A stretch of DNA of 22,716 nucleotides. It comes from a virus. The DNA is taken from IMG/VR virus record IMGVR_UViG_3300033121_002248; one strand, given 5' to 3'. Both the position numbers and the translations under genes were made by a program. Within the stretch, counting starts at the first letter, position 1. Each line of letters begins with the position of its first letter. Below, one piece after another: positions 10,033 to 12,231 of the stretch. Below the pieces are notes generated by a model. The model made no database searches. It had not been told where the DNA came from and worked only from the letters and a program-made list of their open reading frames with translations.

Positions 10033-10749
10033 ATGGCCAAGATCAAGCTGAGCAAGGAGACGCGCGACCGCCTGCGTGAGTTCGCGCGGAAGGTCGTCGT
10101 CCCCGCCGAGGAGAAGGCCGCGGTCTCCCTCACCGCGACGCACATGCGCGACGTGCTGTGCGCGCTGCTGGAGGAGGCTGCCACGGCTGACGAGATGCTC
10201 GTCCTCGAGCGCTTCCACGCCCTCGCGCAGCCGGTGCACATCGGCGTGCTCGTCGGGGAGCGCGGGTACCGCGGTGTGCTGCGGGACGTCATCCAGTGGG
10301 GGCACGACGGCCGGCCGGACGAGGTGGAGCGCAAGAAGTTCACCTTCGCGGTCGCGGACCTGCCGGAGCTCGTCGCGGACGGTTGCCGTCTGTCCCGCGT
10401 CCCGAAGGCGATGCGCTCCGACCTGCGCGGCTGGGGGCGAAACCACGACCTCATCGTCTACACGCGCCTCGGGTCGGAGCTGCACGCCGCGGCCGCGGCA
10501 CTCCAGGCTGCCCAGCAGGCGTACGACGCCGAGCGCGCCCGCCGCCTGGAGGTCTACGACAAGCTCATCCTCGCGAAGAACAACCTCGAGGACGTGCTGG
10601 AGGAGTGGCCGGAGATCCGCCCCATCTACGACGAGGTGCGGAAGGAGCGAGAGGCGAACCTGCCCGCGACGCTGAGCAACACCGACCGTTCGGTGCTCGA
10701 GATGGACATGAACGAGCGCGCCCAGCGCGCGACCAAGATGGAGTCTTAG
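10033..10749 (+). CDS. hypothetical protein (238 aa), partner of the downstream nuclease-fold gene
   Basis: ATG 10033. Its stop TAG directly abuts ATG 10750. Confidence 0.55.
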   Translation: MAKIKLSKETRDRLREFARKVVVPAEEKAAVSLTATHMRDVLCALLEEAATADEMLVLERFHALAQPVHIGVLVGERGYRGVLRDVIQWGHDGRPDEVERKKFTFAVADLPELVADGCRLSRVPKAMRSDLRGWGRNHDLIVYTRLGSELHAAAAALQAAQQAYDAERARRLEVYDKLILAKNNLEDVLEEWPEIRPIYDEVRKEREANLPATLSNTDRSVLEMDMNERAQRATKMES

Positions 10750-12231
10750 ATGAACCTGCACATCGACGTGACCGACCCCGAAGTCATCCAGTACCTCTCG
10801 CGCGGCGATGCCGTGCCGCGCGCCACGCTCGCGCTCCGCATCGGAGTGCTCGCCCTGAGCAACGCCGAGGGCCAGATGGACGCGGAGACCATCCGCAACG
10901 AGGGCGCACGCATCATCGAGGGGGTCACCTCCCTCCTCAAGGCCCACGCCGCGGAGATGGGGAACATCACCGGCGCCGAGCTCGCGCGGTACCTCCACCC
11001 GCAGACGGGTGCGTTCCAGCAGGGCATCGAGCGCCTGGTCGCCCGCGAGGGACTCGTGGTCCGCGACCTCGAGTCCGCGCTGGCCGCGCACGTCGGGGAG
11101 AGCGGCACCGTGGCGAAGACGCTGATGCGCTTCATCGGCGACGGCAGCCCGCTGCTCCGCATGCTCGACCCCGGGCAGGAGAACGGGCTGCGCGGGCGCA
11201 TCGAGAAGATGCTGCAGGACGCCGTCCAGGCGCAGCGCAACGCGGTGCTGGCCGAGTTCAGCCTCGACAAGCCCGACTCCGCGCTCTCCCGCCTGCTGCG
11301 GGAGCTGGGCGACAACAACAGCAAGCTCACCGAGGAGCTCTCGCTCGACAAGGAGGACTCGGCCCTCGCCCGGCTCGTGACGCGCGTGGAGGCCGCCGCG
11401 GCGAAGAGCACGAGCGAGCTCACGCTCGACAACGAGGGCAGCGCCCTGAACCGCCTGCGGGCGACGCTGATCGAGAGCATCGCCTCCCTCGCGCGGTCCC
11501 AGGAGGGCTTCCAGGAGCGCGTGCTGGAGACGCTGGCCCGCTTCGACGAGCGGGAGCGCACGAAGGCCACGGGCACGCAGCACGGCTTCGCCTTCGAGTT
11601 CGACATGTGCATGCGTCTGGAGGTGATGGCGGACGGTGCGAACGACCTGTTCGACGCCACCGGCAGCACCACCGGCGTCGTGCGCAACTGCAAGGTCGGC
11701 GACGCGGTCATCACCGTCGGGCCGGAGAAGTTCGGCTCGGGCAAGAAGATCGTCTTCGAGGCGAAGGAGGACCAGTCCTACAACGACACCAAGGCGCTCG
11801 CGGAGATCGAGCTCGGCGCGAAGAACCGAGAGGCCGAGGTGGGCGTGTTCGTCTTCAGCAGCAAGACGGCGCCCGCCGGCACCCCGCCCTTCCGCCGCTT
11901 CGGCAACTTCGTTCTCGTGGTGTGGGACCGGGAAGACCGCGGCTCCGACGTCTACCTGACCGCTGCCTACGCGCTCGCCACGGCGCTCATCACCCGCGCC
12001 GCGCGCGAGAAGGACGAGGTGGAGTTCGACTTCACGAAGATCGACACCGAGATCGCGGAGATCGAGAAGCAGATCGTCCGCGTCGTGGCGATCCGGGAGA
12101 AGTGCGAGAGCATCCGGCGTGCGGCGACCGCCATCGAGGACGAGACGCGCATCGCGTCGGACAAGCTCACGAGCTCCCTCGCAAAGACCAAGCAGCAGGT
12201 CGACGCGCTGCGCAGCGTGGTGGGCGCGTGA
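10750..12231 (+). CDS. PD-(D/E)xK nuclease-fold protein (493 aa) with an N-terminal helical domain carrying three tandem repeats of about 22 aa
   Basis: C-terminal region: E in HGFAFEFDMCMRLE, GD in KVGDAVITVG, ExK in KKIVFEAKED (classic E...GD...ExK spacing). The N-terminal repeats are EFSLDKPDSALSRLLRELG, ELSLDKEDSALARLVTRVE and ELTLDNEGSALNRLRATLI. Confidence 0.6.
   Translation: MNLHIDVTDPEVIQYLSRGDAVPRATLALRIGVLALSNAEGQMDAETIRNEGARIIEGVTSLLKAHAAEMGNITGAELARYLHPQTGAFQQGIERLVAREGLVVRDLESALAAHVGESGTVAKTLMRFIGDGSPLLRMLDPGQENGLRGRIEKMLQDAVQAQRNAVLAEFSLDKPDSALSRLLRELGDNNSKLTEELSLDKEDSALARLVTRVEAAAAKSTSELTLDNEGSALNRLRATLIESIASLARSQEGFQERVLETLARFDERERTKATGTQHGFAFEFDMCMRLEVMADGANDLFDATGSTTGVVRNCKVGDAVITVGPEKFGSGKKIVFEAKEDQSYNDTKALAEIELGAKNREAEVGVFVFSSKTAPAGTPPFRRFGNFVLVVWDREDRGSDVYLTAAYALATALITRAAREKDEVEFDFTKIDTEIAEIEKQIVRVVAIREKCESIRRAATAIEDETRIASDKLTSSLAKTKQQVDALRSVVGA

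Follow-up and report, generated by a model that had tools for sequence, protein, structure and literature searches.

A predicted PD-(D/E)xK nuclease gene and its separable Nmad5-like neighbor in an uncultured phage

Does the close abutment of two genes in a phage genome mark a functional pair, or only the dense packing of a phage operon? The question is raised by a 22,716-nt stretch of viral DNA (IMG/VR virus record IMGVR_UViG_3300033121_002248; this whole stretch is referred to here as the window), in which a preliminary description, made from the sequence without database searches, had read two adjoining open reading frames (ORFs) as a tightly coupled two-gene module of an unknown protein and a PD-(D/E)xK protein. 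The two ORFs are as follows:

10033..10749, plus strand, ORF A, 238 amino acids (aa)
10750..12231, plus strand, ORF B, 493 aa

Our analysis favors a different answer, to which we assign a probability of roughly 55%: ORF B encodes a stand-alone, accessory, metal-dependent PD-(D/E)xK DNA endonuclease that was captured once by phages, and ORF A is an unrelated inserted gene.

Both ORFs are real genes, as indicated by their codon signature, their abutment, their homologs, and their substitution pattern. The window has a G+C content of 69% and carries nearly all of its genes on the plus strand, as seen in a frame plot of G+C at third codon positions (GC3). The coding signature is strong in both ORF A (GC3 of 0.95 versus 0.41 at second positions, GC2) and ORF B (0.97 versus 0.44), and the ratio of nonsynonymous to synonymous substitutions (dN/dS) against the nearest relative, the L101 contig, is 0.42 for ORF A and 0.46 for ORF B. 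The junction between the two was verified as TAG directly followed by ATG, with the stop codon alone forming the gap. The coupling is therefore as tight as proposed, but the same packing is found at the neighboring junctions, so nothing about it is special to A and B. The genes on either side are as follows:

9559..10029, plus strand, small GIY-YIG nuclease gene (Pfam GIY-YIG, E 4e-13, ORF residues 75–140)
12228..12509, plus strand, small downstream gene of about 93 aa (frame plot), with a GTG start overlapping the TGA of ORF B

The GIY-YIG gene, whose true start is probably near 9775–9793, shares one reading frame with A and B and is separated from A by its stop and one further codon (AGA). 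On the other side, a GTGA overlap at 12228 (sequence GCGTGA) places the start of the downstream gene inside the stop codon of B. No promoter-like sites were found in 9000..13600, the two terminator-like matches in this interval both lie on the minus strand and are the number expected by chance, and no tRNAs were found across the window. We conclude that the A–B junction reflects the usual dense packing of phage genes and does not mark a dedicated partnership, and that a TAG|ATG junction inside a densely packed phage operon is in itself no evidence for a functional pair.

Co-occurrence analysis of the pair in other genomes, which the preliminary description had proposed as a check, did not find A and B together across diverged genomes, and a dedicated two-gene module is accordingly not supported. 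Outside the window, A–B adjacency was seen only in L101, a 4.1-kb contig with 78% nucleotide identity over window positions 8673–12168, which holds the same trio of a GIY-YIG gene, a 240-aa A homolog (70% identity), and a B homolog (67%). In L001, L007, and L008, which are more distant phage loci, B is present but A is absent. No A-family gene was found in roughly 90 other, bacterial B-containing loci, and no B gene was found in L095 or L096, where other A-family genes lie.

A natural deletion bears on the same point. L100 and L101 stem from different samples. In the L100 locus, an in-frame deletion of 1239 nt has removed 413 codons of B between 10-nt direct repeats (GCGCAGGTGG), leaving an 82-aa remnant of B next to an intact A. 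The flanks of the deletion match L101 at 100% and 99.5% identity (L100 1–823 versus L101 2061–4122), and the small downstream gene is kept on the 3′ side (tblastx match of L100 1069–1194 to window 12276–12398). Given that this variant has lost 413 codons of B, the gene is accessory. Taken together, the occurrence of A without B, of B without A, and of the L100 deletion shows that the two genes are separable.

The stable element at this locus is instead the order of the GIY-YIG gene and B, which all of the related phage loci examined share (L001, L007, L008, and L101; tblastx synteny), with the GIY-YIG gene called as such in L008 and L101. The slot between them holds nothing in L008 (5969–6001), a 61-aa ORF in L001 (9766–10001), a 90-aa ORF in L007 (5607–6001), the 238-aa ORF A in the window (10030..10749), and its 240-aa homolog in L101 (1755–2478). 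The small ORFs upstream of the B homologs in L001, L007, L009, and L011 are unrelated to each other and to ORF A. ORF A is thus a recent, lineage-specific insertion into a highly variable slot, found only in the immediate sub-lineage of this phage. The GIY-YIG and SSB neighbors noted in the preliminary description are both present, the former directly upstream of A and the latter about 2.3 kb upstream:

7361..7759, single-stranded DNA-binding protein (SSB)-like gene (tblastx to L007 and L008 genes carrying PF00436)

The wider neighborhood of B in these phages is a block containing SSB, PolX-like, ExoIII-like, staphylococcal nuclease (SNase), and gyrase B genes.

Set against this evidence, a dedicated A+B system, in which A would serve as a sensor, inhibitor, or specificity partner (in recombination, anti-restriction, or toxin–antitoxin-like control), is very improbable, and the co-occurrence data have already largely refuted it. 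It can draw on the TAG|ATG junction here and the tight TAGTG junction in L101, on an A-family gene (P0139, in L096) that shares its operon with a PDDEXK_1 nuclease and two DNA methyltransferases, and on the nucleotide-modification-associated annotation of Nmad5 proteins, to which A is probably related as described below. However, it would have to accommodate the B genes of L001, L007, and L008 and of the ~90 bacterial loci, all without an A-family gene, the A-family loci L095 and L096 without B, the retention of A after the loss of B in L100, and a GIY-YIG/B slot that other relatives fill with unrelated ORFs of 0, 61, or 90 aa.

Four parts of B can be distinguished from an alignment of 35 ORF B homologs sharing 35–70% identity (alignment A1) and from an AlphaFold2 (AF2) model:

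10750..11250, plus strand, residues 1–167 of B, all-helical N-terminal domain (A1, AF2)
11251..11493, plus strand, residues 168–248, three 27-aa repeats (copies starting at nt 11251, 11332, and 11413)
11578..12015, plus strand, residues 277–422, PD-(D/E)xK nuclease core (H278-G279...E283, G317-D318, E337-A-K339, E352, N359-R360)
12034..12225, plus strand, residues 429–492, single long C-terminal helix (AF2, predicted local distance difference test score, pLDDT, of 83–92)

The AF2 model has a mean pLDDT of 76, rising to 79–93 in the nuclease core, which is alpha/beta and displays the alpha-beta-beta-beta-alpha-beta fold of the PD-(D/E)xK superfamily together with its acidic and lysine signature, E...D...(D/E)xK, carried by helix 1 and strands 2 and 3. 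Across A1, D318, E337, and K339 are invariant and E283 is nearly so, as are, invariantly or nearly, G317, H278-G279, E352, and N359-R360. The restriction-endonuclease-like core (E...GD...ExK) of the preliminary description is therefore well founded; that description had named a lack of conservation of the catalytic residues in homologs, or a failed fold assignment, as what would speak against it, and with the canonical signature intact in A1 and the fold supported, neither was seen. ORF B is a member of the PD-(D/E)xK superfamily whose non-catalytic regions have no detectable relatives.

The first of these regions, the N-terminal domain, is recognizable across the family by the motifs DPEV, ALRIGVLAL, YxDPxxG, and SPL..LDP (A1), is modeled as helices at residues 10–169 (pLDDT of 61–85 as block means), and gave no significant match in Pfam, PDB, or NCBIfam. 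It is followed by three copies of the motif E[FL][ST]LDxxxSAL.RL, located by regular-expression search at residues 170, 197, and 224, in which each unit consists of a conserved loop (E[FL][ST]LDxxxS) and then a helix beginning AL.RL. The triplication had been noticed previously and holds, but the period is exactly 27 aa rather than about 22 aa, and the repeats do not build the N-terminal domain; they lie mid-protein (about residues 168–250), preceded by a helical domain of about 165 aa that is conserved and distinct from them. Given that the repeats are kept throughout the family, with four copies in some homologs, they are not a product of chance, and several columns are invariant in A1 (F170, L172, A178, S198-L199-D200, S204-A205, R208-L209, D227, S231, and R235). 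The DNA of the copies is identical at only 35–36 of 54 positions, from which it follows that the repeat arose long ago and that it is the protein sequence that has been maintained. Finally, the C-terminal coiled coil also reported earlier corresponds to one 64-residue helix (429–492) in the AF2 model, present in all homologs though weakly conserved in sequence (A1), and may act as a coiled-coil or oligomerization element, judging from the model.

Curated families come close to B without including it. Individual Pfam scans matched Mrr_cat in 13 of the 35 relatives at E<=0.01 (best E 1e-5), and DUF2130 (PF09903) was matched weakly by three of the 35 (best E 8e-6) and not by ORF B itself. Scans of ORF B against PHROGs, PADLOC, and NCBIfam returned nothing meaningful, PDB sequences searched with the A1 profile yielded only a spurious match, and hhalign of A1 to the single sequences of E. 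coli McrC and E. coli RmuC was not significant (probability 0.3% for the latter). Mrr_cat and McrC are Type IV restriction nucleases. ORF B differs from them in having neither the Mrr_N winged helix nor an McrB partner, while they lack its N-terminal helical domain, 27-aa repeats, and C-terminal helix. Mrr proper was rejected as an assignment, as ORF B falls below the Mrr_cat cutoff, has no Mrr_N winged-helix match, and begins instead with an unrelated all-helical domain.

A coiled-coil joined to a nuclease is the architecture of RmuC and DUF2130. DUF2130 (PF09903/COG4487) and RmuC (PF02646) are poorly characterized bacterial proteins that, like the B family, link a PD-(D/E)xK domain to extended helical or coiled-coil regions, whereas only the B family has the SLD-type repeats and the N-terminal domain. 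Both were listed among the PD-(D/E)xK families in a 2012 survey of the superfamily (PMC3424549). Neither could be assigned to ORF B, which has no Pfam match to RmuC (nor, as noted, any support from hhalign) and does not reach the DUF2130 profile. Shedu (SduA, DUF4263) similarly fuses a PD-(D/E)xK domain to variable non-catalytic regions in a single-gene system, and the preliminary description had drawn this parallel; however, ORF B matched neither DUF4263 nor the PADLOC Shedu model, nor any other PADLOC model. Its second parallel, to phage recombination exonucleases (lambda Exo/YqaJ, RecE, and PDDEXK_1/Cas4-like), found no profile or structural match, although a recombination or anti-restriction function for B is possible. 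The B family is consequently an unnamed new family, with a new architecture, inside a well-known superfamily and is captured by no curated model.

How widely this family occurs became apparent from a metagenome-scale search, which recovered 497 relatives of B, the best 120 of them near full length at 35–70% identity, and from 299 GTDB species genomes that contain a relative, the best 80 being nearly all Planctomycetota. Genes were called in these best 80 GTDB loci and their neighbors clustered, with counts taken over 79 loci. A shared context of RsmE, a HemN-like radical-SAM protein, fumarase, phosphofructokinase, and a BamB-like protein was present in 43 of the 79, and the family is conserved in Pirellulales chromosomes. 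The commonest neighbor, a protein of ~1347 aa encoded immediately upstream in the same orientation (23/79 loci; e.g., L023:5063–9106), is a possible bacterial partner of the nuclease homolog. This protein has an acidic stretch and no Pfam match, and between −4 and 388 nt separate its gene from that of the nuclease homolog. Among the other 29 Planctomycete loci, a Pfam search found neighbors of ordinary metabolic families and no recurrent defense genes. No partner common to phage and bacterial loci, or recurring across the bacterial loci as a whole, was found, and in L004 and L006 the flanking genes lie on the opposite strand, i.e., B stands alone.

On plasmids, tblastn with B matched only six haloarchaeal megaplasmids (H1–H6), at 25–31% identity over the C-terminal half. 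These relatives (e.g., NZ_CP104744.1 26833–27519) span B residues of about 222–480, comprising the last repeat, the core, and the C-terminal helix, and one of them is annotated as a "restriction endonuclease".

Within viruses, B is carried by two IMG/VR viral genomes (UViGs) of 182.8 and 188.2 kb. Related B contigs are phage-like, with many small co-directional genes and genes for gyrase B, HNH, NT5C, dCMP deaminase, VanY, and an AcrVA2-like protein, while no match to B was found in GenBank phages by megablast or tblastn. In a neighbor-joining tree, the putative phage-lineage sequences (P0001–P0011; phage context checked for P0001, P0003, P0004, P0006, and P0009) form one clade that is nested in bacterial diversity and is sister to the L009-type group. 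As the phage sequences are a single clade within bacterial ones, we infer one capture by a phage lineage.

The course of events that we favor would thus begin with a large, uncharacterized, mainly bacterial family, especially common in Planctomycetota, as the source of the phage gene. A lineage of roughly 140–190-kb phages would have acquired B a single time, and the gene would since have held a fixed slot just after the small GIY-YIG gene, in an early DNA-metabolism and repair block. By analogy with the superfamily, phosphodiester hydrolysis would rely on Mg2+ and water held in place by E283, D318, E337, and K339. The N-terminal domain, together with the three 27-aa repeats and the 64-residue C-terminal helix, most likely keeps the nuclease oligomeric, and the same helical parts probably gate its choice of substrate, which would explain how bacterial chromosomes can carry B by itself, with no protective partner. 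The most likely job of B would be to process or degrade DNA during infection, be it host DNA, competitor DNA, or repair and recombination intermediates.

Several observations weigh against this reading. The overlapping junction of A and B recurs as translational coupling in L101 and may therefore reflect a functional interaction within the sub-lineage, and the comparison of A contexts rests on L095, L096, L100, and L101, with the contexts of P0123–P0125 (37–39% identical to A) lying outside it. For the nuclease itself, the Mrr_cat (PF04471) score of ORF B is 17.8 bits (E 0.0037), under the gathering cutoff of 21, and Foldseek of the whole ORF B model against PDB returned no match at E<=0.001, with nucleases ranked first. 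Nuclease activity is a prediction from sequence for every member of the family. The repeat region, which adopts a loop–helix pattern in the AF2 model, has a pLDDT of only 49–70, so its role in oligomerization or gating is conjecture. Lastly, the defense-island setting of some bacterial homologs is a hint that the role may be in immunity and not in general DNA metabolism.

That setting is the starting point for an alternative in which B is a single-gene, Type IV-like immune or exclusion nuclease, dependent on a modification or a signal, that the phage turns on competitors or on modified host DNA. For its catalytic domain, the closest matches are Mrr_cat and McrC. The L009 homolog (P0016) lies between a Type I restriction-modification (R-M) system and a CBASS operon (CD-NTase, two SAVED, and AGS_C) with more PD-(D/E)xK genes nearby, the L011 homolog has DUF1156/DUF499 genes on one side and a TIR protein gene on the other, transposases are found close to the L003 and L004 homologs, and it is the L009-type group that is sister to the phage clade. 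A gene that is dispensable in the phage, with a dN/dS of about 0.46, would also suit such a role. Nevertheless, defense islands were seen in only two of the six non-phage metagenome contexts inspected, B has no PADLOC model match and no recognizable modified-base reader domain, and its synteny in Planctomycetota is of a housekeeping kind, with no defense families recurring among the neighbors. On balance, we regard an immune function of this type as rather unlikely. In the L009 island itself (8001–14368), P0016 ends 8 nt before the CBASS-like operon, whose genes are a DncV-like nucleotidyltransferase, SAVED, AGS_C, and a second SAVED, and the Type I R-M system is accompanied by two further PD-(D/E)xK genes.

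The same Planctomycete core-genome context, read as a sign of a housekeeping DNA function, points toward a further alternative, namely that B acts as a structure-specific nuclease in repair or recombination, either together with the GIY-YIG protein (an SLX1-like pair with a PD-(D/E)xK partner) or in an RmuC-like role. The GIY-YIG–B order is kept in L001, L007, L008, and L101 despite insertions between the two, SSB, PolX-like, and ExoIII-like genes of base-excision-repair (BER) type lie in the neighborhood, and the coiled-coil-plus-nuclease architecture resembles that of RmuC and DUF2130. Yet the shared order in related phages may be simple inheritance, bacterial homologs have no recurrent GIY-YIG neighbor, the hhalign probability to E. 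coli RmuC is the 0.3% given above, and the gene can be deleted in nature. We consider this function clearly unlikely. There is likewise only a slim chance for the bolder proposal that the B family is a new and widespread class of stand-alone nucleases, in which a hitherto undescribed helical sensor module, made up of the N-terminal domain and the 27-aa repeats, licenses an Mrr/McrC-like PD-(D/E)xK domain, and which would provide single-gene immunity in bacteria and have been captured by phages for inter-phage warfare or destruction of host DNA.

Returning to the favored reading, in which A is an unrelated insertion, the question remains of what ORF A encodes. A word-indexed homology search with ORF A recovered the query itself only. 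An exhaustive phmmer search over 1.84 billion representatives yielded 12 relatives, of which three are full length and 37–39% identical (P0123–P0125), and E values from 1e-10 to 8e-4 join ORF A to a set of 177–192-aa proteins. Common to ORF A and its relatives are an N-terminal motif, MAKxRL...P..E..AL, and a C-terminal motif, AY.AER.RRL..Y..L....ED.L..WPE (alignment A3). Six of the 12 relatives matched phrog_1965 and four matched Pfam Nmad5 (PF18757), with P0132 (34.1 bits) and P0137 (29.2 bits) exceeding the gathering cutoff of 27 over nearly the whole model, while ORF A itself stayed under every Pfam and PHROG threshold and had no Nmad5 match. No match was found in GenBank phages by tblastn with ORF A or P0132.

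The AF2 model of ORF A is helical and confident at both ends (pLDDT of 80–96 over residues 1–45 and 148–238) and poor in the middle, where an insert of about 50–90 aa is poorly predicted; relative to Nmad5 (PF18757), this amounts to an extra, poorly modeled insert of about 50 aa. Structural matches in BFVD were weak (E 0.017–0.43), and three of them were to phage proteins annotated as nucleotide-modification-associated. By the profile matches of its relatives, then, the protein previously described as unknown is probably a divergent relative of Nmad5/PHROG 1965, a phage domain that is known though uncharacterized. To our knowledge, no biochemical function is known for Nmad5. A-family genes elsewhere are found with a ParB-like gene (L095) and with the two DNA methyltransferases and PDDEXK_1 nuclease of L096 (P0139). 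In one study, a point mutation in nmad5 of a dhillonvirus was linked to escape from the Tmn defense (PMC11846954).

The B family matters beyond this locus, as it comprises ~500 protein clusters and occurs in 299 species genomes with no curated model, name, or studied member, and has been borrowed by a clade of large uncultured phages. Once defined, its substrate would allow hundreds of "hypothetical proteins" to be annotated and could reveal either a DNA-maintenance function of Planctomycetes or a new single-gene immune nuclease.

The remainder of the window holds further recognizable genes, in addition to one large protein discussed below:

13491..14072, plus strand, PolX-like gene (DNA polymerase beta thumb, E 1e-18)
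about 14326..15126, plus strand, ExoIII/AP-endonuclease-like gene (E 4e-23)
18254..18697, plus strand, LigT-like 2H phosphoesterase match (weak, E 6e-4, below cutoff)
19337..19786, plus strand, staphylococcal-nuclease homolog
19787..20461, minus strand, GH25 lysozyme

The PolX-like and ExoIII-like genes, a base-excision-repair-type pairing in a phage, are split by one small gene (about 14100..14329), and just before them two minus-strand genes (12811..13005 and 13027..13476) break the plus-strand block. The last three genes listed follow one another, and the fold class of the first of them, the LigT-like 2H phosphoesterases, includes Acb1, an anti-CBASS protein. Of the ORFs at 20584..21762 and 1144..2244, both on the plus strand, one contains a CxxCxxCC zinc/iron-chelating domain (E 8e-5) and another a short sub-threshold DNA_pol_A match (E 1.6e-5); among the remaining large ORFs of the first 9.5 kb, most had no Pfam match.

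The large protein, of 894 aa (15470..18154, plus strand), combines a major-vault-protein shoulder domain (E 2e-20) with an SPFH/Band_7 domain. It has an 868-aa homolog in the related phage locus L008, and the huge uncultured phages LR756500, LR756501, and LR756503 (462–735 kb) encode further homologs (34–35% identity, covering 94–95% of the protein). Viral major vault proteins in gut phages were the subject of a 2023 preprint (10.1101/2023.11.10.566534).

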